Origin: Patescibacteria group bacterium | GTDB lineage: Bacteria; Patescibacteriota; Minisyncoccia; Phycocordibacterales; UBA9973 | Direction: 5' to 3' | Assembly: GCA_040390725.1 (NCBI GenBank) | Contig: JAZJXT010000003.1 | Location: forward strand, 1 to 32,501 | DNA: 32,501 nucleotides | Shown here: piece after piece, positions 15,401 through 32,501 of the stretch | How positions within the stretch are numbered: position 1 is the first letter of the stretch | Layout: each line of letters starts with the position of its first letter | Position numbers and translations under genes: made by a program | The notes under the pieces: model-generated | What the model saw: the letters and a program-made list of their open reading frames with translations, nothing else | Databases searched by the model: none | What the model was told of the DNA's origin: nothing

Positions 15401-18307
15401 ATGCGGATAAATAAAATAATAAAAAACATAACCGTCACTCTCCTAATAATGAGTTTTGTTGTTTTCCCATTTTTAAATTCCGCACCAAAAGCTTATGCGC
15501 AAACAGGCTCATTTGGCGTAAACCAATTCGGAGTCACCGGGGGTGTGGGCGGCTATATGAAATTAGTAGGCCCCTTAATACCAAAACTCCAAGGATGCGG
15601 AGCTATGTTAAAAAATAAAATACACAACATCTCTTCAGCATTTAGCGGCACAACAGTAATGGCTACCGACCAATCAGCCCACCCCACAGGTGCTGATAAT
15701 TTAGTTACATCAGGAAGCACAGAAGGAGTTGTAAACGAAGGATTAGCGGATGACACAACAAAAGCAACCCAAGTCGCCACATCAATACCGGTTATGAACC
15801 TTTCAGACCTTCTTATTCAACAAGAACAACTAACACATATTAAGCACACAGAAAAAACAGCTGACGAGGTAGCTGCCAACAAACTCTGCTTGGATAGTGT
15901 CGGCAAGGCAATGGTGAAATTAATTATCCGAAAATTAACTCAAGACATAATAGTATGGATAAATACGGGAGATTTTGGTGATCCTCTTTGGCCAAAAAAC
16001 AGGCCGAATTATTTTACAAGCCTGGGTAAAAATATTACATTGGCATTCAATAATGAAATAGCCGGACTTGGTCCATTTTCTAAGGCTTATATACGAAATA
16101 ATGCCATAGCATTTAGAACAAAATTTGCACAAAATGCACGATTCTCCTTCAATCAAGTGATGCAAGACACAAATCAACCCGTCACTTACGATAGTTTCAA
16201 TAATAATTTCGGATCCGGCGGATGGGGGGCTTGGGCTCTGTTAACACAAGTACCGGCCAATAATCCTTTTGGATTTAATTTAATGACTCAAAGCGAATGG
16301 AGCAAGAGAATGAATGGCGTTCAACAATCTCAAGCTCAAGACGTACGTGATGGCCTTCAAGAAGCCGGAGGATTTTTAGGTACTTATCGTTGCACCGCTC
16401 CTGAAGAATTAAAAAACCAAACTAAACAAGAATACGCTCGCAAGCTCGCATCAGGCAATCCCTTTACCCCAAAACTTAACGCTTGCCTAAGTGAAAGAAA
16501 CCCGTATTCTCTGAATGACACTACCACAGACTCTTCAAGCATGACAATAACACCTTATGATGCATGGGTCAGAGACCATATAGCCAAGTGTGATGCCATA
16601 TCAGCTCAAGCTGATGATTGGAATAAACACAACCTCTGCGCACCAGATGCTTGGGCATATGTAACACCAGGGAAGATGGTTGCAGAAGCGGCTACGGGCC
16701 TGATGCATCACCAACAAGATTCACTTCTCAATGTAAATGACTTAAATGATGCCATTGCCGCTATTTTAGATTCAGCATTAAATAAATTCGGCGGAGACCT
16801 CATAGACAAAGGCCTTGCCGGCATGGATAAAAATTCAGACTACAATCAATACGACTTGACTGATGCTTATTCCCAAGACAGCTCGGGACAAAATAATACA
16901 AACATCCCGGACGGATTTGATAACGTCACATGGTTCCAACAACATCCGAATTTTGATATTACAAAAGATTTGAATCAGGCCCTTATAGATGAACAGAGAA
17001 CATACATGAACAAATTAAAGGATCAAAATGCAGAATTAATTTCAGATGGTACTCCAGGATTTTACACAGGGTTAATACCTACTATCAACCAACTTGATTA
17101 TTGTATTCCGGGGCCACATCCAGGATGGGAAGATGATTCAAGACAAGTTTTATCATCCGTAGAAGACAAAATGGCTCCAGAAACAGAAGACAGTCTCCAC
17201 AACAAAACACTAAATGACGTTTCAGAATATACATCGAGTTATGCACCATTGGCTGCGGGAGCAGCAGGACTAGTGATAGGAGCGACATGGGGAACAGCTG
17301 CTGCTTCATGGACAGGACCGGGAGCAATAATTGGGACAGTGATAGGTGCTATCGTCGGCAGCATAGTGGCTTTTGTTATCCAAGATGTCAATGATTCTAA
17401 TGATACATTAAAAGTACACACATACTACGCGGGTCAAATCAATGTTATCACTGGACTACGTATTCCTATGCCTACTTATGAAAAATATGTAAAAAATCCC
17501 AAGGTCGCAGCCGTAGATTCAAAACAGGGTGCTGTTTCCGCAGTGGACGAAACTTTCAACAGATACATACAAATGGTTCATGCAATATATAACGACAAAG
17601 ATATGCCTTCATATGCACAACAGGGCGCAGCTGAATACAGAAAAATGTCCGGTTATTTAGAAATGAAAAAAGAAAATGATGCTAGTATTACTGCCAAGCA
17701 AGGTATTGTAGATATGTTGGTAAAATTAAAAAGCCAAATGGAAGACCTACTGGCTCAAACAAAACTTGACCCTAGCGATACAAATTATATTGATCCTGAA
17801 GGCCAAGACTACAAAGATAAATTGCAAGTCATAATAACTACATTCGCCAATCTTGCATCGAATTTAGCTTCCGGAGATGACATTGCAAACGTAAACAACT
17901 TAATAAAGCAAATGAAAGACAGTGAGCAGTATGTTGCTGGCAGTCTCTTAGTAGCTTGTGAAAAAACAGAAAGAAATGGTACAGACAATAATCTACCGCA
18001 AGACATAAAAGATACAATGAAAATGACTTATTATCCTCCACATTTGCATGATTATCCTGCAACTGGCAGAACTTGGGGCCCGGGCTTCTTGAGTGCTATG
18101 ACATTTAATGATGATGCTAATAGCAACGAACCAAACCCTCCGGAACACTATCATACTGATTATGTACCGGGGAGAGACAGTGCATCGGGTAAATTGCCTA
18201 GATTAAATATAGGCGACTTATTCCCAGCCGGGAAATGGGGCACTTATCTAGGACGTCCCGTAAAAGATAATGGAGGAGTATGGGAAACAATAATCGGTGT
18301 TTATTAA
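15401..18307 (+). CDS. large secreted/membrane Cys-containing protein with glycine-zipper hairpin
   Basis: Signal peptide ending AYA; GGWGAW...PANNPFG...GGFLG...VTPG motifs I associate with Parcubacteria T4SS-neighbourhood proteins; hydrophobic hairpin at 17246-17380. Confidence 0.82.
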   Translation: MRINKIIKNITVTLLIMSFVVFPFLNSAPKAYAQTGSFGVNQFGVTGGVGGYMKLVGPLIPKLQGCGAMLKNKIHNISSAFSGTTVMATDQSAHPTGADNLVTSGSTEGVVNEGLADDTTKATQVATSIPVMNLSDLLIQQEQLTHIKHTEKTADEVAANKLCLDSVGKAMVKLIIRKLTQDIIVWINTGDFGDPLWPKNRPNYFTSLGKNITLAFNNEIAGLGPFSKAYIRNNAIAFRTKFAQNARFSFNQVMQDTNQPVTYDSFNNNFGSGGWGAWALLTQVPANNPFGFNLMTQSEWSKRMNGVQQSQAQDVRDGLQEAGGFLGTYRCTAPEELKNQTKQEYARKLASGNPFTPKLNACLSERNPYSLNDTTTDSSSMTITPYDAWVRDHIAKCDAISAQADDWNKHNLCAPDAWAYVTPGKMVAEAATGLMHHQQDSLLNVNDLNDAIAAILDSALNKFGGDLIDKGLAGMDKNSDYNQYDLTDAYSQDSSGQNNTNIPDGFDNVTWFQQHPNFDITKDLNQALIDEQRTYMNKLKDQNAELISDGTPGFYTGLIPTINQLDYCIPGPHPGWEDDSRQVLSSVEDKMAPETEDSLHNKTLNDVSEYTSSYAPLAAGAAGLVIGATWGTAAASWTGPGAIIGTVIGAIVGSIVAFVIQDVNDSNDTLKVHTYYAGQINVITGLRIPMPTYEKYVKNPKVAAVDSKQGAVSAVDETFNRYIQMVHAIYNDKDMPSYAQQGAAEYRKMSGYLEMKKENDASITAKQGIVDMLVKLKSQMEDLLAQTKLDPSDTNYIDPEGQDYKDKLQVIITTFANLASNLASGDDIANVNNLIKQMKDSEQYVAGSLLVACEKTERNGTDNNLPQDIKDTMKMTYYPPHLHDYPATGRTWGPGFLSAMTFNDDANSNEPNPPEHYHTDYVPGRDSASGKLPRLNIGDLFPAGKWGTYLGRPVKDNGGVWETIIGVY

Positions 18308-18308
18308 A

Positions 18309-20516
18309 ATGCAAAAAAATATAAAAAAAATAATATTAGGATTGATATTTATCTTGCCTTTATGTGCACCTCTTTCGTCTTTTGCTCTTTCCAACAAAGA
18401 CCTCGTCGTCACAAGCACTGCATCTGGAGTCACAGACGTCTCAGCTACATTTTCCGGATCAATCGACATGGACAACACAGATACAAATGTGAGACTGGGA
18501 TATTTCCGATATGCAACATTAGATAAGCCTCCTATTTTTTGCAATGATATTTATGGTTCCAATATGTTTTCGACCAATGATGCAAATCTAGGCAATTCCG
18601 GCTCGGCGACTTTTTCTAAAACTGTTTCCAATCTCACTCCCGGTTCAACTTATTATTATTGTGCTGTCGTTTCAGACATAAACCAAAATATCATAAATTA
18701 TGGCGGACCGGTAAAATTCACTACTAGATCAACAGTACAAGCAACCATCCAAACCAAGCAACCAATAATCCTCGACAGTACTTCTGCCGACTTGAATGGT
18801 TTTTATAATACAAACGTCGTGGCCAAAACTTGGTTTGAGTACAGAAAAACTGGAGATACTGCATGGATAAAAACTGACACAGAGGCGCATATACCTAATA
18901 CAACTTCTCACTATGTTTCCGGAGAAATTAAATTTTCACTCACAGGAGCAACGACAGACACTCAATACGAATACCGAGCGGGAATACAAGACAATGACCA
19001 AGGCAGTCCAACTTTTGGTAAAAATATTTACGGAAATGTTGTTACTTTTTATTTAAATTCTCCTGTAAATGTTAACACGGGAACTTTCGATGATGGAGTA
19101 TCATATGATCAAATGCCTGACTTTTCTTGGGATAACGGCACCACTAGCAGTAATAATAATCTGGGGACACCGATAACTGGCGGGGGTAATGGCACAGGAG
19201 GCACCGGTACAAATGGTTCAGGCACAGGGACTGGTTCCGGCAGTGGCAGTGGCACTGGCACAGGAACGGGAAGTACCGGATCAACAGGCACCGGCACAAA
19301 TGGCTCAGGAACTAATGGCACAAATGGAGGAACGCTAGGCACAGGGAGTAATGGTTCATCCGGAGGAATAGTTACATTTTCCGGCAGTGGCACAGCAGGA
19401 CAAGGAATTTTTGGACCATCCACCAACATTGAATATGGCAATAGCACAGGTACAGGCAGTGGTAGCGGTAGTGGCACTAATAGTGGAGCTGTAATTGGCT
19501 CTGCAGAAATCAATGCTAAAATTACTGCCTATCAACAAGCCAATATTAAATACAAAACGCTAAAAGATAACATAATCCCTGCTATAGCAAACTTTACCAG
19601 CCTGCTAACTGATGCAGCAGGTGGTATAAACCCATTCGATGTTAAATATAGCAGTGAAACTTTTACGCAATTCAAGAATCAACTTTCCGATAAGCAAAAA
19701 CCTATTTTTGATTCCGCATTTCAATCATTAATAACAAAAATAAATGGACTTCTAGATATCGGGGGCAATCAAATACCGGCAGACTTGCGAGATAAAGCAA
19801 AATTACTTCTAGACCCAAACACCAGTATGGGTACCATTAAATCCATTCTCGATAAATTTTCACAAGAAGGCGGAATAGTACTGACTAACCAAGAAAAACT
19901 TACCGAATTAGCATTAACAGCAGCAGAGGCAGCGAAGCCCGGCAGTACTGCGGGGAGCTTAAGTAGTGGCACAGGATCTGGCATAAATGGTGGGCCTAAC
20001 GGTACGGGAACTGGTGCAGGTATTGGTTCAGGCACAGGGACTAGTTCTGGAATAGGAAATGGTGCTGGGTCCAGCAATGGAACAAGTTCAGGAACTGGCA
20101 CGGGTGCTAGTGCTAGTACAATTACTAGTACAATAAAAGCGCCAGAAATTGGTGATATCAGGAAACCTATTTCAGATGCGATAGTGCGCACCGGCGAAGG
20201 AGTGGAGACTGTATTTGCCAGACAAATAATAGCTTATCCGCAACTAGCGAAACTTTACGGCTACACAGCAGGCTCAAACTTAAAAGTTTTTGCCGGAGAA
20301 CTAGCGCATACTTTTGCTAAACTTTTCGGATATTATAGCGGAGGAGGCAGGGAAATACGCGTCCTGCCTGCAAACATAGCTGCATATGAACTCGGAATGA
20401 AAGACAATAAACTCGCAGTCTATGAATATTATGGCAATAAAATAGAAAATATCGCGACCGTAGCTCCAATTCTGAAAAATGCTTTGGGTTACGAATATTA
20501 TTTCATTAAAAAATAA
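18309..20516 (+). CDS. secreted FN3-like protein with two Gly/Ser/Thr-rich tracts and an uncharacterised C-terminal domain
   Basis: Signal peptide ending SFA; FN3-like SNLTPGSTYYY and TDTQYEYRA; GTGS repeats. Confidence 0.85.
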   Translation: MQKNIKKIILGLIFILPLCAPLSSFALSNKDLVVTSTASGVTDVSATFSGSIDMDNTDTNVRLGYFRYATLDKPPIFCNDIYGSNMFSTNDANLGNSGSATFSKTVSNLTPGSTYYYCAVVSDINQNIINYGGPVKFTTRSTVQATIQTKQPIILDSTSADLNGFYNTNVVAKTWFEYRKTGDTAWIKTDTEAHIPNTTSHYVSGEIKFSLTGATTDTQYEYRAGIQDNDQGSPTFGKNIYGNVVTFYLNSPVNVNTGTFDDGVSYDQMPDFSWDNGTTSSNNNLGTPITGGGNGTGGTGTNGSGTGTGSGSGSGTGTGTGSTGSTGTGTNGSGTNGTNGGTLGTGSNGSSGGIVTFSGSGTAGQGIFGPSTNIEYGNSTGTGSGSGSGTNSGAVIGSAEINAKITAYQQANIKYKTLKDNIIPAIANFTSLLTDAAGGINPFDVKYSSETFTQFKNQLSDKQKPIFDSAFQSLITKINGLLDIGGNQIPADLRDKAKLLLDPNTSMGTIKSILDKFSQEGGIVLTNQEKLTELALTAAEAAKPGSTAGSLSSGTGSGINGGPNGTGTGAGIGSGTGTSSGIGNGAGSSNGTSSGTGTGASASTITSTIKAPEIGDIRKPISDAIVRTGEGVETVFARQIIAYPQLAKLYGYTAGSNLKVFAGELAHTFAKLFGYYSGGGREIRVLPANIAAYELGMKDNKLAVYEYYGNKIENIATVAPILKNALGYEYYFIKK
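19178..19490 (+). repeat. coding low-complexity G-T/S-N repeat (second tract ~19940-20120)
   Basis: GGCAC/GGCAGT-type hexamer periodicity encoding GTGSGSGSGTGTG. Confidence 0.8.
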
Positions 20517-20554
20517 AGAAATAAAAATGTTTGTATGTTAGAATTAAAACGATA

Positions 20555-23266
20555 ATGAAAAAAACATTTTCCAAAATTTTAATCCCACTTATTATCTTGA
20601 GCTTTTTCTTAGCCCCGATGATTGGTTTTCCTTTTAAAGCCAGTGCTTTGGCGTCAGAATTCACTCTTACTGCAAACCCCCCATCATCAACAGATACATT
20701 TGTATCACTTACAGCTTCCATCAGTAACGAAATTATAACTCCGGGAACCGTATTACGAATTTATTTTTACCCTGTTGGCACTATATTAAAAAAGCCAAAT
20801 CAAGATTTCCCAATACCTGAAGAAATAATAAAATCTAAAAAAGGCTTTATGACGGAAAAAATTATTAATCTTCCACCAGGAAACTATCAAACCTATGCAG
20901 AACTTTTTTCTGACCAAGGAAGCCTGATATACGGCACATCCAACACTGCATCTTTTACAATAACAAGTAAAGAAATGCAATATAGCGTCCCAGAATTTAT
21001 TCCACCGACCAATGTAGACGGCTGGAGATTTGATTGTTCGGGTCTATATCTTTCGCCAACTAACATAAAATGCGTTATAGCTTCCGTTTTGTACGATTTT
21101 ATTTTTACACCATTGTCTGACTTTGCTAGGTTCTCAGCAGGAGTACTCGACAAATTTATTTATTATTCCACCCTTAGCAGTTCATATTCACAAAGCTTTG
21201 TAGGCAAAGCTTGGGCTGCCGTGCGAGATATCTCTAATATATTTTTTATAATTGCTTTACTTTATGTAGCTATCCAAACTATCTTAGGCCTGGGGAGTAA
21301 AGCCAAACAAATGATAGCCACGATCATCGTGGTGGCTCTTATTATAAATTTCAGTTTATTTTTTACCGAAGTCATTATTGACGGATCAAATATCCTGGCA
21401 CGGGTATTTTATAATCACATAACTTCTAAAAATAAAAACGGTAAAGAAATAACAAATGCCGGTGGTGAAAGATCTATTTCTTTAGCCCTAGCCTCAGAAT
21501 TTGACCCGCAAAAAATAGTCCCGTCAAAAAAACAGTTTGAAGACAATTTGCAAGGACCATTTATTTTTACAACAATAATGGCAATAATAATAATGCTATA
21601 TATGGCGTATTGTTTTCTTTCTGTATCATGGCTGTTTCTGGGAAGAGTCTGCACTTTATGGATGGCAATGGTTTTCTCACCACTGGCTTTCGCTTCTTAT
21701 GTCGTGCCTTTTGATATTGCCGGCTTCGGTCATCAAAAATGGTGGGAAACTTTTCTAAAAAGCGCATTCCTGGCGCCAATATATATATTTTTCCTTTATG
21801 TGATAATTCTTTTTGGAGATGCCATACGTAGCGTTGTAGGAGATTTTCAAAATTCTACAGACTGGCTGGATCAAATAATGTATGTGGCTATGCCTTTCGC
21901 AATCGTTTACTTCCTTTTAAATAAATCCAAAAAACTAGCTGAAGATTATTCCGGCGACATGGCAGGAGCCGTCGGCAAAATCGCCGGCATTTACACTGGG
22001 CTACTCAGCGCCGTTGTCTTCGGTGGGGTAGGCTTCGCGGGCAGAGTCGGCCTCGGCCGAGTGGGGAATATGGTTTCAGAAAGTGCTTGGATGAAAGACC
22101 TAATAGGTTCACAGAAAAAAGTAAAATTAATGGGCATGGAATTAAACTTACAATCATGGCTTGGCAAAAGAGTTAGAAGTGGTGCCGAAACACTGGAAGG
22201 AGCGAGCTACGACGTAAGAGGATTAAAAATAGGAGGCAAAGATATAGCAGGGCATACTGGCTGGGATTTGGGTAAACCTCAAGAAGGTGGATTTAAAAAG
22301 ATGAGAGAGGAGCAAGGAAAGAAGAGACGAGAAAGGTCAGAAAAACTATCAGTAGGACATGACGAAGAAGAGCATCACATGCTAGAAGAGATGAAAGTAA
22401 TATTGCAAGACTTGTATTCAACAGGTAAGCCTTTAACTGATGCATGTGATAACTTAATAAAATTAGACACGACTAGATTAAACAATGCAATAAAACAAAA
22501 AAATCCAGAAAAAGCAGAATTCTATGGAGACAGAGTAGCAAATGCAAACGAAATAAGAAGAGCTGCAAAGGGTGTGTATGACTTTAAGGGAGATTATAAA
22601 CACGTTGATGAAATGAAATATGTCGTAGACCCAGAAACACACAAAGGTAAACTACAAAAAACAGGAAAGCGCGTGCAAATACAAACAGGTGTTACAAAAT
22701 ATAAAACGGGTGAATTAATAGAAGTAAAAAATGCAGAAACTGGAGAAATGGAAATGAAGGAAGAAGAGAAATTATATGCGGAAGCAGAATTTAAATCAGA
22801 GCTAGAAAAAAATCCGGAAGATTATAAATTCTCTAAAAATAAAAAATATATGAAAGAGGTCACGGAAGAAAGTCCATTCAAGAGAATAAATCTAAGTGGT
22901 GACGTGTTGTATAAAGAATTTGAAAAAAATGAAAAAGGTGAATTATTAAAAGATACAGCTGGTGATTTTATATTCACTGGAAAAGTTAGCAAAACAGTAT
23001 CCTATCTAGACCCGGAAAAGAAAATAAAAGCATACGCACCATTAGGAATGGACCCTCTTGAAGATGAAAGTATCGTTGTGCAACAAGGTAAAATCGCTCA
23101 GATAGGCTACCAGCGTAAATTAGGCGAAGCAGCTAGTGCTACAAGTGATGTGGCAAAAATATTTAACACAGTCACAAGCTTAGGAGGAGACAGTATAGAA
23201 GAAATAGAAAATTCAAGACATGCCACATTGTCTGGAGCGAAATTAGATAAAGGAGGAGGACATTAA
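20555..23266 (+). CDS. VirB6/TrbL-like polytopic membrane protein with N-terminal Ig/FN3-like module and long charged C-terminal tail
   Basis: WAAVRDISNIFFIIALLYVAIQTIL...IVVALIINFSLFFTEVIIDGSN...RVCTLWMAMVFSPLAF...KWWETFLK; many TM helices; upstream of PrgI and VirB4-like genes. Confidence 0.72.
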   Translation: MKKTFSKILIPLIILSFFLAPMIGFPFKASALASEFTLTANPPSSTDTFVSLTASISNEIITPGTVLRIYFYPVGTILKKPNQDFPIPEEIIKSKKGFMTEKIINLPPGNYQTYAELFSDQGSLIYGTSNTASFTITSKEMQYSVPEFIPPTNVDGWRFDCSGLYLSPTNIKCVIASVLYDFIFTPLSDFARFSAGVLDKFIYYSTLSSSYSQSFVGKAWAAVRDISNIFFIIALLYVAIQTILGLGSKAKQMIATIIVVALIINFSLFFTEVIIDGSNILARVFYNHITSKNKNGKEITNAGGERSISLALASEFDPQKIVPSKKQFEDNLQGPFIFTTIMAIIIMLYMAYCFLSVSWLFLGRVCTLWMAMVFSPLAFASYVVPFDIAGFGHQKWWETFLKSAFLAPIYIFFLYVIILFGDAIRSVVGDFQNSTDWLDQIMYVAMPFAIVYFLLNKSKKLAEDYSGDMAGAVGKIAGIYTGLLSAVVFGGVGFAGRVGLGRVGNMVSESAWMKDLIGSQKKVKLMGMELNLQSWLGKRVRSGAETLEGASYDVRGLKIGGKDIAGHTGWDLGKPQEGGFKKMREEQGKKRRERSEKLSVGHDEEEHHMLEEMKVILQDLYSTGKPLTDACDNLIKLDTTRLNNAIKQKNPEKAEFYGDRVANANEIRRAAKGVYDFKGDYKHVDEMKYVVDPETHKGKLQKTGKRVQIQTGVTKYKTGELIEVKNAETGEMEMKEEEKLYAEAEFKSELEKNPEDYKFSKNKKYMKEVTEESPFKRINLSGDVLYKEFEKNEKGELLKDTAGDFIFTGKVSKTVSYLDPEKKIKAYAPLGMDPLEDESIVVQQGKIAQIGYQRKLGEAASATSDVAKIFNTVTSLGGDSIEEIENSRHATLSGAKLDKGGGH

Positions 23267-23276
23267 AAAATAAAAT

Positions 23277-23783
23277 ATGATTGAAATATTAAAAAATGTA
23301 ATAAAAAAAGAAATGGTTAAACTTCCTAAAACAACACAGGAAATATTTAATCTTTCTGATTTTGAAAAGCAATTGGATGAAATAAGCAAAGAATATTTCC
23401 AAGATGACGAAGAAAAAATAAATAATTTCCAAGCTGAAACTGTATTATTGCTTTTAGGAGTTAACCCTCTAAATAATTATGCTAAAAAAGTTGCATATAG
23501 TTCAATCCTGGCCATGGAAGATGCTGAAAAAATAACAAAAAAAGCTATAGAAAAAATATTTATTCCGCTAGCAGAAAAAGTAAACGAGAACATAAAAAGT
23601 AAACTAAAAAGTAAAAACCCTAAATACGATCAAAACATGAAGTTCATTCTTTCCGGAGGAGATTATTCTCACTTTCTTGAAAATCCAAACATGGTTGGGA
23701 CAGTCGTCGAAGAAGAACAACCGAAATATGTCGCGGACACTTTCTCAAAAGTTGAAGATTTAAAAAATAAATTTGTTGTATAA
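23277..23783 (+). CDS. helical hypothetical protein, paralogue of the next gene
   Basis: FQAETVLLLLG aligns with LELETELLLCG of 23826-24497. Confidence 0.82.
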   Translation: MIEILKNVIKKEMVKLPKTTQEIFNLSDFEKQLDEISKEYFQDDEEKINNFQAETVLLLLGVNPLNNYAKKVAYSSILAMEDAEKITKKAIEKIFIPLAEKVNENIKSKLKSKNPKYDQNMKFILSGGDYSHFLENPNMVGTVVEEEQPKYVADTFSKVEDLKNKFVV

Positions 23784-23825
23784 TTAAAGCAGTTTAACAA
23801 GTTTAGATAAATACAAAAAATAATT

Positions 23826-24497
23826 ATGAATGACACAATAGATTTACTACAAGTAAAAATAGAAAATGCAAAAAAGGAATTATCCGAGGAGACTAGGCGC
23901 GCGATAGACGCCGTGGATTGGAGAAAAGTCATCCTCGACATGAGATTAAAAAAAGGCTATAGCCTCGAACAACTGGAAGACTTGGAGCTCGAGACGGAGC
24001 TTTTGCTTTGCGGCTTAATAAATACACAAGACTATCCAAAGGAATTGGCAAACAGTTTAAAATTGCCTCGAGCCAAAGCCGACCAATTGGCAAATGAAAT
24101 GAATGAATTGGTCTTCAAAAAAATCCGTGATGAAATGATAAAATTACTGGATAAAAAGCAACCAGCAAACACAGAACCCGTAAAAAACATAGTGAGTCCT
24201 GCGCCAGTTCCACCTATTAGAAGTTTCGCAGATATGCGAATAAAAAAAGAGGAAGAGCAAGTATTGGAAATAGCCGGAATAAAAATAAATGAGATACCAG
24301 GTGTAGATAAAGCTCCGGCTCCTGCCACGCCACAACCTACGTCCACAATGATGCCAATACAGAAACTTTCCGGGGCTTTCCAAATGCCGGCAAAAAAAAC
24401 TGAATACACGATAAATAATATTTCAAAAACCCCGGCAATGCCGACAAATACAAATACTTCTCTGCCAAAAGCAGATCCATACCGAGAGCCAATTTAG
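23826..24497 (+). CDS. hypothetical protein with Pro-rich linker and C-terminal DPYREPI motif
   Basis: 223-aa ORF directly upstream of prgI-like gene. Confidence 0.85.
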   Translation: MNDTIDLLQVKIENAKKELSEETRRAIDAVDWRKVILDMRLKKGYSLEQLEDLELETELLLCGLINTQDYPKELANSLKLPRAKADQLANEMNELVFKKIRDEMIKLLDKKQPANTEPVKNIVSPAPVPPIRSFADMRIKKEEEQVLEIAGIKINEIPGVDKAPAPATPQPTSTMMPIQKLSGAFQMPAKKTEYTINNISKTPAMPTNTNTSLPKADPYREPI

Positions 24498-24516
24498 TTA
24501 AATTTTTGAAATGTTG

Positions 24517-24522
24517 TATAAT
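24517..24522 (+). promoter_or_regulatory. -10 box, leaderless geometry
   Basis: TATAAT, 6 nt, then ATG 24529. Confidence 0.6.
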
Positions 24523-24528
24523 TGATTT

Positions 24529-24960
24529 ATGCAATTCAAGGTCCCACAATTTTTAGACATAGAAGACAAAATTTTCGGGCCATTTACTTTTAGGGAGTTT
24601 GCTTATTTGGCCGGGGGAGGGGGTCTGTGTTATGTGCTTTTCAAGCTTTTAGGTTTTTGGTATGGTGCAATACCGATACTCTTAATAGGAGGACTGGCAG
24701 CATTGCTGACTTTCTACAAACCAAACAATAAACCATTTATAAATATGCTTGAGGCCGGTGTAAAGTACGCCATCCAAGACAAACTTTATATCTGGGAAAA
24801 AAGAATGGTGAAAACCAGCGAGAAAATAGAAGCTGAAAAAAAACAAAAAGAAATGGAAACACCGACCCAAAAGAAAATGGCTCTAGGGGAAAGTAAATTA
24901 AAAGATTTAGCATGGGGTTTGAATGTTTTAGATTTAGAAAAAGAAAATAAAAATCAATAA
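24529..24960 (+). CDS. PrgI family protein (VirB3 analogue)
   Basis: MQFKVPQFLDIEDKIFGPFTFREF, two TM helices, then KPNNKPF. Confidence 0.88.
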   Translation: MQFKVPQFLDIEDKIFGPFTFREFAYLAGGGGLCYVLFKLLGFWYGAIPILLIGGLAALLTFYKPNNKPFINMLEAGVKYAIQDKLYIWEKRMVKTSEKIEAEKKQKEMETPTQKKMALGESKLKDLAWGLNVLDLEKENKNQ

Positions 24961-24966
24961 TAATTT

Positions 24967-25611
24967 ATGGCAATATCAGCAAAAGCAACTCAAGAATTCG
25001 TCCCTATAAAAGAAGTCCGCGACGGAGTAATCGTTTTGAAAAACGGTGATTTTCGAGCTATTGTTTTAGCCAGCTCTGTAAACTTATCTTTAAAATCAGA
25101 AGAGGAGCAAAAAGCCACCATACTTCAATTCCAAAATTTCTTGAATACTTTGGATTTTTCCATACAAATATCAATACAATCCAGAAAGCTCGACATCCGC
25201 CCGTATCTTTTAATTTTAGAAAACAGAATGAAAGTGCAAAATGAACCTCTATTAAAATTGCAAACAAAAGACTATATAGAATTTATAAAAAGCTTCACCG
25301 AACGGGCGAGCATAATGACAAAAAACTTTTTTATAGTCGTGCCTTTCACTCCTACGGCCTTCAAGGCGGAAAGTGGCATCTTAAAAAAGATATTTTCCAA
25401 AAGCACGACCGAAGAAGAAAGAAAACTCGAGGAATCAAATTTCGAAGAAAAAAAATCACAACTGGAACAAAGAGTGGGCGTCATATCGCAAGGGCTCGCT
25501 CGCTGTGGGATAAATTCAGTGCAATTGGGAACGGCAGAAGTGGTGGAAGTTTTTTACAAAGTATTTAACCCGGGGGAGATAGAAGGCAAGATAAACCTGG
25601 GACAAAAATAG
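24967..25611 (+). CDS. stand-alone VirB4/TraE N-terminal-like domain protein
   Basis: TQEFVPIKEVRDGVIVLK...SVNLSLKSEEEQ...FLNTLDFSIQI...KNFFIVVP; lies between PrgI and the ATPase. Confidence 0.78.
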   Translation: MAISAKATQEFVPIKEVRDGVIVLKNGDFRAIVLASSVNLSLKSEEEQKATILQFQNFLNTLDFSIQISIQSRKLDIRPYLLILENRMKVQNEPLLKLQTKDYIEFIKSFTERASIMTKNFFIVVPFTPTAFKAESGILKKIFSKSTTEEERKLEESNFEEKKSQLEQRVGVISQGLARCGINSVQLGTAEVVEVFYKVFNPGEIEGKINLGQK

Positions 25612-25617
25612 TATAAT
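25612..25617 (+). promoter_or_regulatory. -10 box, leaderless geometry
   Basis: TATAAT, 6 nt, then ATG 25624. Confidence 0.55.
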
Positions 25618-25623
25618 AAATAT

Positions 25624-27453
25624 ATGTCATTTTTAGATAAATTATTAGGCAGAAATAGTGCTGGAGAAAACGAAACAAACGCTTCTATTTTGCCGGTGCT
25701 TCCGGAGCAAATATATGAATCAGCCACACTCGAACTCCAAGACGTGATAGCGCCTTCAGCCTTAAAAATAGAACCTAAATCCATAAACCTGGGTGATAAA
25801 ATAGCTCGCACTTTTTTCATCATGTCATACCCGCGCTTTCTAGCCGACAACTGGTTTTCTCCCATTATAAACTTAGATAAAATTTTTGATGTTTCTATTT
25901 TTATACACCCGATAGACACTTCTTTGGCTTTGCGCCAATTCCAGAAAAAAGTAGCCGAGGTGCAGAGCCAAATAAACACTCGCGAGTCCAAAGGCATGGT
26001 GCGCGACCCTATGCTCGACACTGCATTTCAAGATTTGGAAGGACTGCGCGACAGCCTGATGCAAGCCCAAGAAAAAATGTTTGATGTGGGTTTGTATATT
26101 ACTGTCTATGCCGACAATGAAATGGATCTTTTCAAGGTTGAGAATGAAATAAAATCAATCTTGGAATCAAAACTTATTTACATCAAACCCGCACTTTTCC
26201 AACAAGAAGATGGTTTTAAAAGTGTCATACCTATTGAAAATGATTTATTAAATATTCACCAAAAATTAAATTCTGAACCCTTGTCCAGTATTTTCCCATT
26301 TGTTTCTTTCGACCTGACTTCCGACAAAGGAATTCTTTACGGCATAAACAGACACAATAATAGCTTGATCATCTTCGACCGTTTTTCTTTGGAAAATTAT
26401 AATTCCGTAATGTTCGCAAAATCAGGATCAGGAAAAAGTTATTGTACAAAATTAGAAATCATCCGATCATTGATGTTTGATATTGATGTCATAGTCATAG
26501 ACCCGGAAAGGGAATATGAATACTTGGCGGAATCCGTCGGTGGAAGATATTTTAATATTTCTCTTTCTTCTGACCACCACATCAATCCTTTTGATTTGCC
26601 TATGCCCCGCGAAGATGAAACAGCTGAGGACGTCCTCCGTTCAAACACTATAAACCTCGTCGGACTTTTTAGGTTGATGTTAGGCGGGCTAACTCCAGAA
26701 GAGGACTCCATGGTGGACAGAGCCATCACTGAAACTTATGCGATAAAAGACATCACACCTGATTCTAATTTTGCAAATGTCGAACCTCCGCTACTTTCTG
26801 ATTTTGAAATGGTTCTTTCCGGAATGGAAGGCAGTGATTCGGTCATCCAAAGATTAGTAAAATACACTCGCGGTTCCTGGGCGACGTTTTTAAACAAACC
26901 GTCAAACGTGGATATCAATAAAAAATTTATAGTTTTTTCAGTACGTGACATGGAGGATGAATTAAAACCCGTAGCGATGTATATCATCACACACTTCATC
27001 TGGAACGCAGTGCGTAAAAACTTGAAAAAAAGATTATTGGTAGTCGATGAAGCATGGTGGATGATGAAATCCCCGGATACGGCATCATTTCTATTATCCA
27101 TAGCAAAAAGAGGCAGGAAATACTATTTAGGCCTAGCCACCATCACCCAAGATGCCGGTGACTTTATGCAATCAGAATACGGTAAACCCATCATCAGTAA
27201 TTCATCCATTCAAATACTCTTAAAACAATCGCCCTCAACCATAGGCATCTTGCAACAAACCTTCAACCTAACAGATGGAGAAAAATATTTACTCTTAGAG
27301 TCAGGGCGAGGGGAGGGATTGTTTTTTGCCGGGTCCAAGCACGTAGCTATAAAGATAGAAGCTTCATATACCGAGGACCAGATCATCACTTCAGACCCTT
27401 CACAAATTCAAGCCATCAAAAAAGCAAAACAAGAGCTGGAAGCAGAGAAATAA
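25624..27453 (+). CDS. virB4: VirB4-like type IV secretion/conjugation ATPase
   Basis: Walker A AKSGSGKS; VIDPEREY; INPFD; Walker B LLVVDEAW; KRGRKYYLGLATITQ; GEGL. Confidence 0.92.
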   Translation: MSFLDKLLGRNSAGENETNASILPVLPEQIYESATLELQDVIAPSALKIEPKSINLGDKIARTFFIMSYPRFLADNWFSPIINLDKIFDVSIFIHPIDTSLALRQFQKKVAEVQSQINTRESKGMVRDPMLDTAFQDLEGLRDSLMQAQEKMFDVGLYITVYADNEMDLFKVENEIKSILESKLIYIKPALFQQEDGFKSVIPIENDLLNIHQKLNSEPLSSIFPFVSFDLTSDKGILYGINRHNNSLIIFDRFSLENYNSVMFAKSGSGKSYCTKLEIIRSLMFDIDVIVIDPEREYEYLAESVGGRYFNISLSSDHHINPFDLPMPREDETAEDVLRSNTINLVGLFRLMLGGLTPEEDSMVDRAITETYAIKDITPDSNFANVEPPLLSDFEMVLSGMEGSDSVIQRLVKYTRGSWATFLNKPSNVDINKKFIVFSVRDMEDELKPVAMYIITHFIWNAVRKNLKKRLLVVDEAWWMMKSPDTASFLLSIAKRGRKYYLGLATITQDAGDFMQSEYGKPIISNSSIQILLKQSPSTIGILQQTFNLTDGEKYLLLESGRGEGLFFAGSKHVAIKIEASYTEDQIITSDPSQIQAIKKAKQELEAEK

Positions 27454-27456
27454 TAA

Positions 27457-27465
27457 TGATATAAT
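27457..27465 (+). promoter_or_regulatory. extended -10 promoter, leaderless geometry
   Basis: TGATATAAT, 6 nt, then ATG 27472. Confidence 0.7.
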
Positions 27466-27471
27466 CATACT

Positions 27472-28446
27472 ATGCTAAAAAAGGTTTTGATGTTAATAGT
27501 AATATTATTTTTAGGCACTTTTCACCTTGTCGGTGCTCAATCACAAGGCACTGATATTTCTTTAGACATTACTCCATCATTCCCATCTCCAAATCAAAAT
27601 GTAAGTGCCACCGTCTCCACTGTTTCTTTTGATTTAAACCACTCAAATATCACATGGCTATTAAATGGCACTCCATCACTGGAAGGTATCGGCAAAAAAG
27701 AATTTTCTTTTAGCGTTGGAGATGCAGGGTCTCAAACATCCGTGGAAGTTAAAATTCTTGCTCCGGATGGCAACCTCATAGACAAAGTTATAGTCATAAA
27801 CCCCGCTGGTATGGATTTGCTGTGGGAAGCTTATGACTCTTATGCTCCACCATTTTATAAGGGCAAAAAGCTCGTACCTAGCGAAGGTAGTTTTAAAGTA
27901 GTAGCTATACCAAACCTGCAGTCCAGGGGACAAAGAATACCTAGCAGTAATTTATCTTACAATTGGAAACAAGACAATGAAGCACAACAAGATTTATCCG
28001 GCTATGGAAAAGACTATTATGTTTTCAAAAATAATTATTTAGACAATGACAACACCGTCGAAGTGACTGCTTCCAGTGTCGCAGGGAATTCTGTATCCAC
28101 CAAAAGCATCACATTAACTCCCGGCAATCCTAAAATTGTTTTCTATGAAAAAGACCCTACTACCGGCATAAAATGGGAAAAATCTTTGCAAAATGGATTT
28201 TTTATCCCACAGGGTGGCACTTCAATAGTAGCTATGCCATATTTCTTTTCGCCCAATGACATAAGTTCTTCTGATATGACTTTTGATTGGTCTTTTAACG
28301 GCTCTGACATAAACACGCCTTCGACTAAAAATATTCTTTCCGTAAAACCAGGAACAACTGCCGGACAAACGGCAATAAAAGTAAATATTAAAAATGCCAC
28401 CACTTATTTTCAAGAATTAGAAAAAGAATTAGATGTTAGTTTTTAA
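27472..28446 (+). CDS. secreted protein with three probable Ig/PKD-like beta-sandwich modules
   Basis: Signal peptide; repeated ITWLLNG, SYNWKQDN, FDWSFNG; YAPPFYKGK. Confidence 0.8.
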   Translation: MLKKVLMLIVILFLGTFHLVGAQSQGTDISLDITPSFPSPNQNVSATVSTVSFDLNHSNITWLLNGTPSLEGIGKKEFSFSVGDAGSQTSVEVKILAPDGNLIDKVIVINPAGMDLLWEAYDSYAPPFYKGKKLVPSEGSFKVVAIPNLQSRGQRIPSSNLSYNWKQDNEAQQDLSGYGKDYYVFKNNYLDNDNTVEVTASSVAGNSVSTKSITLTPGNPKIVFYEKDPTTGIKWEKSLQNGFFIPQGGTSIVAMPYFFSPNDISSSDMTFDWSFNGSDINTPSTKNILSVKPGTTAGQTAIKVNIKNATTYFQELEKELDVSF

Positions 28447-28453
28447 AAATTAA

Positions 28454-30238
28454 ATGAAAAAAATATTTCCAAAAATTTTAATACTCGCATCATTCACCCT
28501 GGCTCTGCTGTTATTTATTTTACCGTTTAGTGGTAAAGCAAGTGGCCCTGATGCTACAACTCAAGTCGTAGAAAAATCAGTAACCATAAGGGTGACATTT
28601 GATACTCCAGCAGTAGGAAGCCAAGCATGTAAGGCTGAATTCAGCACCATTAACGATAAAGGGGTTGTTGTAACAAATAGCGTAGCAAACTTTACAGGAT
28701 CTGCTTCTAGCGTTTCAAAAACTTTTAATAATCTTGATCCTGGGAATTATACAGCAAATATAAAAGAAACTGATTGTTATAATTATGATTTATCGACTCC
28801 TTTTTCCATAATCAGAGTTTTTTCTGGTACATTTAATGGTGATATTAATGTAAAAAAAAATGAAAATAAATCAGCAACAATAATAGTTACCCCTGCAAAA
28901 CCAATCGGAAGTGGAACATGTACTGCAAAGTTTTCATTACATAATAAAAATAACCCCGATATTGGTGATTACGCAGTAGAGAATTTCCAAGGCACCGCTG
29001 AATTTGTTTCACACACTTTCACAGAGCTTGGAGATGGAACCTATACAATAAAAGTAGATATAGATGATTGTTATGGTAGTGTCCCTCTTTATACTTTTGA
29101 CTTTAATGTGGTGACATTAGACACCAGTTGTACACCGCCACAAGTCTTAGTCAACGGTTTTTGCTCAAATCCTAATACTAAAACAGATTATTATCCCTTA
29201 GCCTCCTTGCCAGGAGTAGGACAAACAGATTGTGAACCACAAAGCCAAGTATCCGGAGGCACGACAACTACTTGCGTTAAGACTGCTGACCCAAATGCTT
29301 TTGGTAATTATTTAAATGTACTTATAAAAATATTCATGGGTGTTTGCGCCGTTTTAGCTATGGTCATGATAGTCATGGGTGGAGTAGAATATATGACGAG
29401 CGAGCTAGCCTCCAGTAAAGAAGATGGCAAAAAAAGAATCACCCAAGCTGTTTTAGGATTACTTATTGCTCTAGGTGCTTATGCAATTTTAAACACCATA
29501 AACCCCGAACTCTTAAATACAAGCTTGAGCAATTTACCTCAAGCCATATTAGAACTAGACATACATGATGAAGCGTTAGATGAAACAAAATATTCAACAT
29601 CTCAACTCGCAAATTTAGCTCAATGCCCTGATGCCCCTATTACAACAGGTGATGGTGTTGTTGCAGACCCTGTCATTGCTAACCTCAATATACAAAACAA
29701 AATTTGCCAAAGATTTGGTCATAATGGACAATCAAAAATAAAAGGTATTATATTACACAGAACAACTGGCACAAACCCAAATGGTGCCTATGGTGCTTGG
29801 TTACAAAATTCAGGAACAAGCAAAGAGGCCGCGGCTCACTTTATTATTGATGCAAGTGGAAACGTTATACAAGCAGCCGAAATTAATAAATATACCTATT
29901 CAATTAGAAATTCTGATTTACTACCTGGGAACCTAAAAGGCACTCTGAGTAATACAAATACTATCAGTATCGAAGTTACAGGTAGATGTTTTATAGATAA
30001 CTTAGGTGGACAAAATTGTCTTTTAAATGATACAGATACAAATAAAGCAAACGATGCTAAAAAAATTGTCTGGGACTCTCCGACCCCTCCTCAGGAAGCA
30101 GCATTACACGAATTAGTTTACTATTTATTAGATAAATATAATTTAACCAATAGTAATATATACGCACACGGAGAAACTTCAAGCGCAAAAATATATAATG
30201 AGGCCTCAGAAATAACACAGTATATAAAATCACACTAA
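28454..30238 (+). CDS. fusion protein: signal peptide, two Ig/FN3-like repeats, VirB2/TrbC-like pilin domain, Amidase_2-like domain
   Basis: Pilin-like AVLAMVMIVMGGVEYMTS...KEDGKKRITQAVLGLLIALGAYAILNTINP; amidase-like GIILHRT, AHFIIDASGNVIQ, NTISIEVTG, IYAHGE. Confidence 0.82.
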   Translation: MKKIFPKILILASFTLALLLFILPFSGKASGPDATTQVVEKSVTIRVTFDTPAVGSQACKAEFSTINDKGVVVTNSVANFTGSASSVSKTFNNLDPGNYTANIKETDCYNYDLSTPFSIIRVFSGTFNGDINVKKNENKSATIIVTPAKPIGSGTCTAKFSLHNKNNPDIGDYAVENFQGTAEFVSHTFTELGDGTYTIKVDIDDCYGSVPLYTFDFNVVTLDTSCTPPQVLVNGFCSNPNTKTDYYPLASLPGVGQTDCEPQSQVSGGTTTTCVKTADPNAFGNYLNVLIKIFMGVCAVLAMVMIVMGGVEYMTSELASSKEDGKKRITQAVLGLLIALGAYAILNTINPELLNTSLSNLPQAILELDIHDEALDETKYSTSQLANLAQCPDAPITTGDGVVADPVIANLNIQNKICQRFGHNGQSKIKGIILHRTTGTNPNGAYGAWLQNSGTSKEAAAHFIIDASGNVIQAAEINKYTYSIRNSDLLPGNLKGTLSNTNTISIEVTGRCFIDNLGGQNCLLNDTDTNKANDAKKIVWDSPTPPQEAALHELVYYLLDKYNLTNSNIYAHGETSSAKIYNEASEITQYIKSH

Positions 30239-30244
30239 ATTAAC

Positions 30245-31585
30245 ATGTCAAAAAGAAATTTAACACTTTTAATAATAACACTCGTAGCCATACTGGCGAT
30301 ATTTTTCGGGTATATATTTTTCTCCGGAAAAACAACACCTACTACGGGGACAACTACAGGCACAAACTTTTTCTCATTCTTGCCTTTTACTAAAACCACA
30401 CCCACCCCTCCGGCACCTGTACCTCCGGCAAATGTTTCAGGAACTGAAACTACTCCTCCGGCACCAATAGAAGCAACCGTATCAAAATTAATAAAAGTCT
30501 CTAGCATGCCCATAGCAGGGTTTACAGTATTCCAAAAAGAAAGATTTAAAGAAATCCCACCGGTTATCCCAGTAGAGACAACCCCAGCTCCTACAACCAC
30601 AAAGAGTAAGGCAACAGTAAGACCTACCGCTCCGCAAACTGAATTCGTACCATCTGTGCGCTATGTTGCAAAAAATGACGGAAATATTTATCAAACTTTT
30701 GCGGAAAAAATAGAGGAAAGAAAATTTACTACAACCGTAGTCCCGCAAGTTTATGAAGCATATTTCGGAGCAAAAGGGGAGTCTGTATTTATGAGATATT
30801 TAAAATCAGACAATGAAACAATAGAGACTTTTATCGGTTCATTACCGAAAGAAATTCTAGGGGGCGACACCACAGGGAATACAGAAATAAAAGGTTCTTT
30901 CTTGCCAGAAAATATCACAGACATGAGCATGTCACCCGATGCCACGCAATTATTTTATTTATTCAACACAGGAGACACTGCCGTAGGTATAACTTCTGAC
31001 ACAGCAGGAGTAAAGAAATCCCAAGTTTTTGATTCCTCTTTCACAGAATGGCTTTCATGGTGGCCAAACAATAAAATGATAACATTAACGACAAAACCTT
31101 CTGCAAATATCCCGGGCTATATGTATACTGTTGACCCAACTAAAAAAGATTTTAATAGAATTTTAGGTGACATAAACGGGCTTACGACTCTCACCAGCCC
31201 AAATGGTAAACTCATCCTATATGGTAACAATAACTTATCATTAAATATTTATAATACAGAAAAAAAGGAGTCTACTGCCCTAAACTTAAAAACTTTACCG
31301 GAAAAATGCGTATGGAGTAAAAATAGTGATGCCTTGTATTGCAGTGTCCCAAAATCAATTGACCGAGCAGCATATCCTGATTCTTGGTATCAAGGTGAAA
31401 TTTCTTTCTCAGATGAAATCTGGAAAATAAATATAACAAACAACAATGCCACTGATCTGGCTGACCTGACAGGAATATCAGGCGAAGAAATAGATGGAGT
31501 AAAACTTGCCCTAGATGACAATGAAAATTACTTATTTTTTGTAAACAAAAAAGATTCTTATCTTTGGGAACTAAATTTGCATTAA
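30245..31585 (+). CDS. membrane-anchored beta-propeller (TolB/WD40-like) protein with Pro/Thr linkers
   Basis: N-terminal TM; blade-like MSPDATQLFY, TSPNGKLILY, WSKNSDALY, LDDNENYLFF. Confidence 0.8.
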   Translation: MSKRNLTLLIITLVAILAIFFGYIFFSGKTTPTTGTTTGTNFFSFLPFTKTTPTPPAPVPPANVSGTETTPPAPIEATVSKLIKVSSMPIAGFTVFQKERFKEIPPVIPVETTPAPTTTKSKATVRPTAPQTEFVPSVRYVAKNDGNIYQTFAEKIEERKFTTTVVPQVYEAYFGAKGESVFMRYLKSDNETIETFIGSLPKEILGGDTTGNTEIKGSFLPENITDMSMSPDATQLFYLFNTGDTAVGITSDTAGVKKSQVFDSSFTEWLSWWPNNKMITLTTKPSANIPGYMYTVDPTKKDFNRILGDINGLTTLTSPNGKLILYGNNNLSLNIYNTEKKESTALNLKTLPEKCVWSKNSDALYCSVPKSIDRAAYPDSWYQGEISFSDEIWKINITNNNATDLADLTGISGEEIDGVKLALDDNENYLFFVNKKDSYLWELNLH

Positions 31586-32046
31586 ATTCCCCCTAAATAT
31601 TTAATAACCACTCGTCTAGAAGGGCCATCGCCCATAGACTCTGTTTTTAAATCAGTTTCATTTGCTAAAAATTCATGCACAACCCTTCGATCAAAAGCCG
31701 ACATAGGGTCCACTTCCACATTTGTTTTAAAATATCTCGCTCGTTCTGCCATCATATGCGCCACCGCCTTCACGCTATCCATTCTCTTTTTATGAAAACC
31801 ATTCACGTCTACTAAAATATTTGCCCCGACATCGGGACTATTTTTAGATTCAACAATTCTTTTTACCAGATGATTTAATGAAAAAAGACCTTCTCCATCA
31901 CGAGAAACAAAGAAATGAGGTTCGGACACTTCTACGGAAAAAACCACACTTTTACCGTTATTTTCAGTGATTTCAATACTGTTTACAGTCACAGCCATTT
32001 TTTCTATCAAATCTTTTATTAAATTTTGTATTTCTTGATTATTCAT
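31582..32046 (-). CDS. jag: Jag/KhpB-like KH plus R3H RNA-binding protein
   Basis: R3H motif PMSAFDRRVVHEFL...TESMGDGPSRRVVI; degenerate KH domain; downstream of yidC. Confidence 0.9.
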   Translation of the reverse strand: MNNQEIQNLIKDLIEKMAVTVNSIEITENNGKSVVFSVEVSEPHFFVSRDGEGLFSLNHLVKRIVESKNSPDVGANILVDVNGFHKKRMDSVKAVAHMMAERARYFKTNVEVDPMSAFDRRVVHEFLANETDLKTESMGDGPSRRVVIKYLGGI

Positions 32047-32049
32047 ATT

Positions 32050-32501
32050 TTATTTAACAACAAGAAGAGCTTTTAATTCGTCTCTATTTTTCTTGTTGGC
32101 ATAAAGCTGTTGACCTATGGCAAATATATTACTAGTTATCCAATATATTGCAATAGCCCCGGAAATTTTGTACGCGATAAAAACCACGAGTAATGGGAAT
32201 ATATATTTCATCTGCATTTGCATGCTCTTGGCGAAGCTTTCCTGGAAAGACCCTGTGCTAGGCTCAGTACTAGGTTTAGGCTGTGGCATAAAGTACGCCA
32301 CGAAGAATTGTGATATGCCGGCGATAACAGCCAACGTGAGGCTCTTGTGACTTATGTCCACAAGCCCCAAGAAAAAATTATTTACTGGCTCCGGGCTGTG
32401 CACAAAAGAATATAAAATACCATCACCAAACTTTACTCCTTTGTAAAAAACATAATACAAAGCCCAAATTATAGGCAGCTGTACAAGAACCAAAAGACAA
32501 C
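32050..32501 (-). CDS. yidC: membrane protein insertase YidC, 5' part outside the window
   Basis: CLLVLVQLPIIWALY...GAIAIYWITSNIFAIGQQ; frame open to the window edge. Confidence 0.93.
   Translation of the reverse strand, partial: CLLVLVQLPIIWALYYVFYKGVKFGDGILYSFVHSPEPVNNFFLGLVDISHKSLTLAVIAGISQFFVAYFMPQPKPSTEPSTGSFQESFAKSMQMQMKYIFPLLVVFIAYKISGAIAIYWITSNIFAIGQQLYANKKNRDELKALLVVK

Follow-up and report, generated by a model that had tools for sequence, protein, structure and literature searches.

A pilin-type hairpin fused to Ig-like repeats and an Amidase_2 domain in a type IV secretion operon of a Patescibacterium

The window analyzed here, 32,501 nucleotides (nt) of contig JAZJXT010000003.1 from a Patescibacteria group bacterium, contains a type IV secretion system (T4SS) gene cluster, and within it a gene, hereafter the slot gene, that encodes a 594-amino acid (aa) protein. 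All coordinates are those of the window; open reading frames (ORFs) were read with translation table 11, in which the slot gene is open over 594 codons and ends in a stop, and Pfam matches were judged against the cut-off of each family. Five parts make up the protein: a signal peptide, two Ig-like repeats, a VirB2-like two-helix hairpin, a linker and an Amidase_2 domain (Table 1). The repeats are 43% identical to each other (aa 41-110 versus 138-207, E 4e-12), and aa 30-240, as modelled in the ESM Atlas, resemble tandem Fn3, PKD or Ig-like folds (TM 0.5-0.67), which we use as a lead only. Hydropathy delimits the signal peptide at aa 1-29 and two transmembrane helices, TM1 at about aa 282-316 and TM2 at about aa 328-351. 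The loop that joins them, SSKEDGKKR, holds four K/R residues and the flanks of the hairpin are K/R-poor. Because of this charge pattern and the signal peptide, the Ig-like and amidase parts are both predicted to lie outside the membrane, and all 12 cysteines outside the membrane helices fall within these predicted outer parts. The extension ahead of the amidase (aa 362-425) is common to other pilin-fused amidases, as judged by reading the sequences. A chance ORF and a gene-fusion artefact were both ruled out, the same architecture being present in many independent assemblies.

A preliminary description of this DNA, made from its letters, had proposed a pilin-type hairpin fused to Amidase_2 and preceded by Ig-like repeats, set among type IV secretion genes, with the accessory parts at either end outside the membrane. 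These proposals hold: Pfam matches both domains (PF18895 at its cut-off, PF01510 well above), the repeats are recovered by self-comparison, signal peptide, helices and loop charge predict the outer location with nothing to place the amidase in the cytoplasm, and the neighbors include PrgI and VirB4 in an order that is kept across loci.

Table 1. Features of the slot gene and of its T4SS neighbors in the window, with their occurrence in, and median identity to, 80 related loci.
Feature	Position	Strand	Evidence	Found in loci	Median identity
911-aa polytopic membrane protein, "VirB6-like" by position only	20531..23266	+	no Pfam support	34/80, limited by flank length	35.2%
PrgI (VirB3-like), 143 aa	24529..24960	+	PF12666, 34.6 bits	66/80	60.3%
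214-aa protein upstream of VirB4	24967..25611	+	no Pfam match	68/80	73.8%
VirB4-type ATPase, 609 aa	25624..27453	+	P-loop_TraG, E 1.1e-24	77/80	84.7%
324-aa secreted protein, upstream slot neighbor	27472..28446	+	no Pfam match over cut-off	77/80	39.3%
Slot gene, whole ORF: signal peptide, 2 Ig-like repeats, pilin-type hairpin, linker, Amidase_2	28454..30238	+	Pfam, hydropathy		
Signal peptide (inferred), aa 1-29 (KK, hydrophobic core, ...GKASG), no lipobox cysteine	28454..28540	+	hydropathy		
Variable cassette 1: no DNA homology to locus L010, both flanks align	28485..29281	+	DNA comparison		
Ig-like repeat 1, aa 41-110, Cys59/Cys108	28574..28783	+	self-comparison, Atlas model		
Ig-like repeat 2, aa 138-207, Cys156/Cys206	28865..29074	+	self-comparison, Atlas model		
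Pre-hairpin motif DYYPLASLPG (consensus Y-x-P/L-L-A-P-L-P-G)	29186..29215	+	alignment of 120 relatives		
Pilin-type hairpin: TM1, K/R-rich loop, TM2, terminal TINPELL	29297..29506	+	Pfam, hydropathy, alignment		
Second boundary motif, T-I-N-P-x-L-L type, closing the pilin core	29495-29515	+	alignment of 120 relatives		
Linker and N-terminal extension of amidase module, aa 362-425, Cys391/Cys418	29537..29728	+	read off sequences		
Variable cassette 2: amidase module and first third of next gene, no DNA homology to L010	29539..30617	+	DNA comparison		
Amidase_2, aa 426-574 by Pfam; module reaches aa 594; key residues H435, H462, E507, H572, K579, E583	29729..30175	+	Pfam		
446-aa membrane-anchored protein, downstream slot neighbor	30245..31585	+	weak beta-propeller match only	77/80	55.0%

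Does the C-terminal domain keep an amidase active site? Pfam matches PF01510 at 52.7 bits against a cut-off of 26 (E 6.9e-14), and at 55.9 bits in a scan of the whole genome. When aa 380-594 were searched against 1.84 billion representatives, 107 relatives were found at E <= 1e-3, eight of them at E <= 1e-10. The five closest amidase relatives (P0121-P0125, 37-42% identity) all have the same hairpin ahead of the amidase; Pfam recognizes PF18895 at E <= 1e-3 in only P0123 and P0124 of these five and also in the more distant P0133, P0153 and P0156. In an alignment of 92 sequences (the query domain and 91 selected relatives of up to about 700 aa), H435 is present in 92/92, H572 in 91/92, E507 of the (S/G)IE motif in 90/92 and E583 in 89/92, and position 579 is K or R in 91/92. 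H435 and H572 align with histidines of AmpDh2, AmiD and AmpD, which we take to be zinc ligands. E583, four residues past the Lys, falls in the profile alignment one column after an Asp that is presumably the third zinc ligand of AmpD. The alignment profile matched 24 distinct solved sequences at E <= 1e-3, including AmpDh2 (E 1.4e-18), AmiD (3.7e-15), AmpD (1.8e-13), XlyA (4e-13) and T7 lysozyme (2.5e-9). Amidase_2 clusters also filled 10 of the 10 rows shown for the Atlas model of aa 400-594 (TM 0.66-0.77), again as a lead only.

An amidase fold, as first proposed, is thus supported by Pfam, the profile matches to solved structures and the Atlas model. The motifs then singled out, LHRT (H435), AHGE (H572), TYSIR and KIYNE, all lie at the places given, and TYSIR and KIYNE do stand where the usual amidase motifs would be expected; this replacement is not decay, E583 being widely kept and the Ser of TYSIR being common to the four closest pilin-fused relatives. 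Because 89-92 of the 92 sequences retain H435, E507, H572, K579 and E583, TYSIR and KIYNE appear to be traits of an amidase subfamily with a probable His-His-Glu site. A degenerate or pseudo-amidase was considered and rejected on the conserved catalytic residues. Elsewhere in this subfamily, P0145, a protein of 1440 aa with DUF6443 and RHS_repeat matches, carries a C-terminal Amidase_2 domain of this kind, which suggests that this amidase type also serves as a polymorphic-toxin tip. One Atlas cluster combines Amidase_2 with XVIPCD, the signal of antibacterial T4SS effectors in Xanthomonas.

The hairpin has the design of a pilin, a signal peptide followed by two hydrophobic helices with a short charged loop by hydropathy. 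Its T4SS_pilin match (PF18895, aa 287-348) scores 25.8 bits against a cut-off of 26.6 by hmmscan and 30.0 bits, above the cut-off, in the whole-genome scan; slot relatives reach 42.7 bits. The preliminary description had likened the hairpin to both T4SS pilins and TrbC: the first likeness stands at about the family cut-off and the second falls below it, TrbC/VirB2 (PF04956) scoring 17 bits against 27.9. A profile of 12 hairpins found no solved conjugative pilin in the PDB (best E 2), and the whole protein as a single-sequence query returned nothing useful among solved structures (best E 0.66). The full protein far exceeds pilin size (about 70-130 aa) and only its core, aa ~245-355, is pilin-sized. 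Two motifs bracket this core, and their residues Y246 and L249 (Y-x-P-L-A-P-L-P-G) and P351 (T-I-N-P-x-L-L) are invariant in 120 relatives. Motif positions were taken by regular expression, which found the TINP type in 61/81 slot proteins and the YxLLAPL type in 48/81, and only these proteins enter the length distributions. Bare slot pilins have the first motif directly behind the signal peptide and end 7-86 residues past the second. Because of this first position, the conserved core, about 105 aa, is by sequence of ordinary pilin size, with cassettes inserted outside it; the slot protein itself has about 215 aa ahead of the core motif and 243 aa behind the core. The bracketing motifs are possible maturation or docking sites.

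We then compared the slot between species, scanning one genome per species (GTDB) with the alignment of 120 relatives. The 80 loci used here are the best of at least 226 tblastn-confirmed places among at least 605 pattern matches, mostly in Nomurabacteria/Paceibacteria records. VirB4 and the 324-aa and 446-aa proteins are each found in 77 of them, in constant order. Most of the misses are at contig ends: L011 and L032 lack VirB4, the 324-aa protein or both, and L019 and L078 lack the 446-aa protein. In addition, L071 has no 324-aa gene, and L072 is a second copy in the genome from which L080 also comes. The slot hairpin (aa 278-356) shares 45-75% identity with those of the 80 loci, with a median of 67.5% that is biased upward since the loci were picked by hairpin patterns. 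The lengths of the slot proteins lie between 156 and 653 aa.

By Pfam, 41 of the 80 slot proteins have a wall enzyme C-terminal of the hairpin: VanY in 14, NlpC/P60 in 11, YkuD in 6, SLT_2 in 5, M15_4 in 3, and SLT_3 and Amidase_2 in one each. The swap of hydrolase domains among orthologues that the preliminary description had put forward for survey is therefore found in the same slot. The remaining 39 comprise seven bare pilins (<=220 aa) and 32 proteins whose C-terminal parts, mostly 100-290 aa, lack a recognized enzyme. Among database relatives, a set that overlaps with the 80 loci, 49 of 104 carry a wall enzyme (NlpC/P60 17, VanY 13, M15_4 6, YkuD 5, SLT_2 4, Amidase_2 3, SLT_3 1), P0106-P0120 having been left out of the Pfam scan. 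On the N-terminal side, relatives have binding-type cassettes (TIG, Big_1, CBM_10, DUF5018, Fn3-like).

The borders of these cassettes can be seen in the DNA. Against the nearest relative, L010, whose VirB4 is 90% identical, homology covers 24392-28484, 29282-29538 and 30618-32501, with nothing between. Because homology breaks around each of them, the Ig-like part and the amidase part are two separate replaced cassettes. A second pair of loci, with almost identical VirB4, differs in enzyme: L078 (6680-7885) carries NlpC/P60 and L080 (6617-7858) carries SLT_3, and their 85% DNA homology stops 14 codons past the hairpin. Mapped on a VirB4 tree, enzyme type switches almost at random, with 22 changes versus 25.2 +/- 1.5 in shuffles (19/500 shuffles gave 22 or fewer); the tree is a quick one of 68 rows with many weak branches, ten loci having been dropped for short matches, and 40 of its tips are labelled, with seven states. 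Among the 80 loci Amidase_2 recurs only in L009, which lies in a distant clade of this tree.

The same genome encodes other pilins. Six PF18895 genes (464, 135, 121, 219, 128 and 118 aa) form a tandem array on another contig, away from VirB4 (L089:2690-6356 = G000:C1:152689-156355). None of the six has a C-terminal enzyme, and the 464-aa member has a large N-terminal domain. Identity of the array pilins is 20-31% to the slot hairpin and 22-50% among themselves; similar arrays, with about 25% identity within them, are described for Patescibacteria in the available text of PMC12102498. Because the array pilins are low in identity and enzyme-free, as are those of Southlakia described below, the slot hairpin appears by sequence to be a distinct, much more conserved class.

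In the operon, genes follow closely at the slot, with 18 nt between VirB4 and the 324-aa gene, 7 nt between the latter and the slot gene, and 6 nt between the slot gene and the 446-aa gene. The 214-aa protein may be the split N-terminal part of VirB4, a name given by position only. At loose thresholds Pfam gave no family for the 911-, 214-, 168-, 223-, 324- and 446-aa neighbors, and a promoter and terminator scan of 20000-32501 yielded counts not above those of shuffles. On the opposite strand, jag (R3H) and yidC occupy the window end (31582-32493 (-)), and dnaA lies 1.6 kb past it (G000:C3:34071-34553); the T4SS cluster is therefore origin-proximal, a location also reported from Paceibacteria. 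Origin-proximal, relaxase-less T4SSs that match this cluster are known in Patescibacteria, as the available parts of two reports describe (PMC12102498, PMC12857230). The genome (829 kb, 94% complete) has genes for the synthesis of its own wall, with three transpeptidase and five Mur-ligase matches. The slot gene is its only Amidase_2, and because a separate Amidase_3 is encoded elsewhere, the slot amidase is not the sole housekeeping amidase.

Other genes of the window were also noted. A LysM and Peptidase_M23 protein at 1026-2138 (-) is a separate wall endopeptidase in the neighborhood. Large predicted proteins of 743, 237, 791, 893, 968 and 739 aa, with no Pfam match over cut-off, fill 2434-10641 (+) and 15401-20516 (+); the 739-aa protein has long low-complexity runs rich in Gly/Ser/Thr. 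A 121-aa antisense ORF (30235-30600 (-)) overlapping the 5' end of the 446-aa gene is in all likelihood a frame open by chance opposite a Pro/Thr-rich coding stretch.

What is the function of a wall enzyme on a pilin-type hairpin? At somewhat under an even chance, we favor the reading that the slot gene encodes a tethered wall-cutting subunit of the chromosomal, origin-proximal T4SS of this Paceibacteria/Nomurabacteria-type Patescibacterium, with a topology, docking, activity and wall target that we infer. After Sec export, the VirB2-like hairpin (aa ~245-355) would span the cytoplasmic membrane, its short K/R-rich loop facing the cytoplasm, and would hold outside both the N-terminal tandem Ig-like module and a C-terminal zinc MurNAc-L-alanine amidase. 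In the proposed site, H435, H572 and probably E583 would bind zinc, and E507 and K579 would act in catalysis. The hairpin would be the part that docks to the T4SS machine, so placed that the amidase would open peptidoglycan at the apparatus, a task for which other monoderm T4SSs have separate VirB1/PrgK/CwlT-type hydrolases. The wall that is cut may be either the producer's own or that of a host. In support of a tethered wall-cutting subunit, the SLT and NlpC/P60 domains of slot orthologues are of the types found in monoderm VirB1-class proteins. Most Patescibacteria with VirB2-like genes are reported to have no VirB1 homologue, and VirB1 homologues associated with VirB4 are reported mainly from Paceibacteria, in the text available from PMC12102498.

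Several observations weigh against this assignment: (i) pilin homology is weak, with PF18895 at its cut-off, TrbC below it and no solved pilin found by profile; (ii) a hydrolase is not obligatory in the slot, since bare pilins (7/80) and proteins with no recognized enzyme (32/80) occupy it too; (iii) the YkuD transpeptidase domains found there are not classical lytic enzymes; (iv) near-random switching is odd for an enzyme that serves the producer's own, presumably stable, wall; (v) the third ligand is outside the canonical K-x-C/D register, the canonical position being Tyr581; and (vi) the WHAG-type His, present in 82/92 aligned amidases, is Ser in five, namely the slot protein and its four closest pilin-fused relatives.

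Alternatively, and possibly though we doubt it, the module is directed at the host: the hairpin would be a true pilin in a T4SS pilus, or at its tip or base, and the displayed Ig-like module and amidase would bind and cut the host wall, with cassettes that match host wall chemistries and influence host range. Both outer cassettes are indeed replaced between close relatives while hairpin and neighbors are kept (e.g., L078 versus L080), enzyme-type switching is near saturation on the VirB4 tree, and the N-terminal cassettes of relatives are of binding type. The occurrence of the same amidase subfamily at the end of the RHS-repeat protein P0145 and the Atlas pairing of Amidase_2 with XVIPCD point the same way. 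In archaea-parasitising Paceibacteria, T4SS-pilin-domain proteins rank with the most highly expressed genes of unknown function, according to the available text of PMC10936435. The slot family shares with polymorphic toxins a conserved carrier with a variable C-terminal enzyme. However, no cognate immunity-like gene was found directly downstream, where the conserved 446-aa protein stands in 77/80 loci, and a tethered enzyme faces the producer's own wall too. No VirB2-type pilus is known from the group, and the filaments solved in one candidate phyla radiation bacterium are, in the available part of PMC13278184, unrelated Pam pili; the separate array of six small pilins offers better filament candidates. 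In a related and similarly doubtful proposal, the pilin core may be a universal carrier for a binding module and a wall enzyme, two exchangeable outer cassettes that would be recombined almost as fast as lineages diverge. Such a host-range locus may set which host walls are attached to or breached, and its modules may be freed by cleavage at the two invariant boundary motifs.

That last step recalls another possibility, an unlikely one, in which the boundary motifs are maturation sites of a cut precursor: processing there would yield a pilin core of about 105 aa ready for assembly and set the Ig-like and amidase modules loose as secreted proteins. The invariance of Y246, L249 and P351 in 120 relatives, the ordinary pilin size of the core as judged from bare slot pilins, and the breaks of DNA homology near both motifs would fit such processing. 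IncP TrbC and VirB2 pilins are processed at their C-termini. But Pfam recognized no dedicated peptidase in the locus, and the motifs are equally explicable as structural contacts. It seems still less probable that the Amidase_2 domain only binds the wall, in the manner of a non-catalytic peptidoglycan recognition protein (PGRP), an adhesin or a peptidoglycan anchor. The absence of the canonical Cys/Asp two residues past the Lys and the Ser in place of the WHAG-type His would suit a binding role; non-catalytic PGRPs typically lose a zinc ligand, yet the slot amidase belongs to a family in which H435, E507, H572, K579 and E583 persist in 89-92 of 92 relatives, and many different catalytic domains occur in slot orthologues. 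Finally, the borderline family assignment and the failure of the profile to find a solved pilin would also agree with an ordinary membrane-anchored autolysin, whose hairpin is a generic two-helix anchor and whose place beside VirB4 is meaningless. We regard this as very improbable: the slot is fixed in 77/80 loci, PF18895 scores reach 42.7 bits in relatives, and the hairpin is conserved above most machine parts, which a generic anchor would not need.

How does a tethered wall-cutting subunit compare with known systems? VirB1-class hydrolases of monoderms, such as PrgK of pCF10, TraG of pIP501, CwlT of ICEBs1 and TcpG of pCW3, have a single N-terminal anchor, muramidase and CHAP domains and no known pilin module. 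The slot protein is similarly a membrane-anchored peptidoglycan hydrolase in a T4SS operon, and its orthologues include SLT and NlpC/P60/CHAP-type domains (SLT or NlpC/P60 in 17/80); it does not share the VirB1-class layout, however, having its hairpin in mid-protein, an Amidase_2 and an Ig-like module, and its enzyme domain changes from one close relative to the next. To the amidases AmpDh2, AmiD, AmpD and T7 lysozyme it is linked by homology (E 1.4e-18 to 2.5e-9) and by both zinc His, the IGIE-type Glu and the Lys, whereas its third ligand is out of the K-x-D/C register, with a Glu four past the Lys, and the WHAG His is Ser in its clade. Xanthomonadales X-Tfes (XVIPCD) and RHS polymorphic toxins have an Amidase_2 of similar fold or subfamily and variable C-terminal enzymes, but the slot protein lacks XVIPCD, RHS repeats and an adjacent immunity-like gene, and bears its enzyme on a machine-type hairpin rather than on a soluble substrate.

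Closest in setting is the T4SS cluster of Southlakia epibionticum ML1, with its pilin series SEML1_0014-0019, as given in the available text of Wang et al. 2023 (PMC10633639) and Quinonero-Coronel et al. 2025 (PMC12102498). In the tables available from PMC10633639, SEML1_0014, 0015 and 0018 have PF18895 and no enzyme domain (Table S2) and SEML1_0019 is annotated as a pilin (Table S1); the Southlakia hydrolase SEML1_0006 is described there as a separate three-domain protein. Southlakia VirB2-like pilins share with the slot protein PF18895, the signal-peptide-plus-hairpin design, and a relaxase-less chromosomal T4SS near dnaA with PrgI/VirB4. In contrast, those described are small and divergent, and the slot hairpin is highly conserved and flanked by large modules on both sides. 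In the literature searched, including the available parts of PMC12102498, PMC10633639, PMC12857230, PMC10936435 and PMC13278184, we found no description of a pilin-hydrolase fusion in these bacteria. This copy contributes the Amidase_2 form and its conserved His-His-Glu residues, the borders of the cassettes, the statistics on the slot and the contrast with the pilin array of its own genome.

In the one genetically tractable Patescibacteria species, the T4SS is essential for epibiotic growth, and the available text of two reports leaves its cargo and role obscure (PMC10633639; PMC12857230). A machine-type hairpin with interchangeable wall enzymes would provide a concrete link between the T4SS and the breaching of cell walls. 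Tethered enzymes of this type may explain the apparent scarcity of VirB1 in most Patescibacteria genomes, as reported in the available part of PMC12102498, and the mosaic of two cassettes would serve as a simple marker in comparisons of lineages and, possibly, of hosts.

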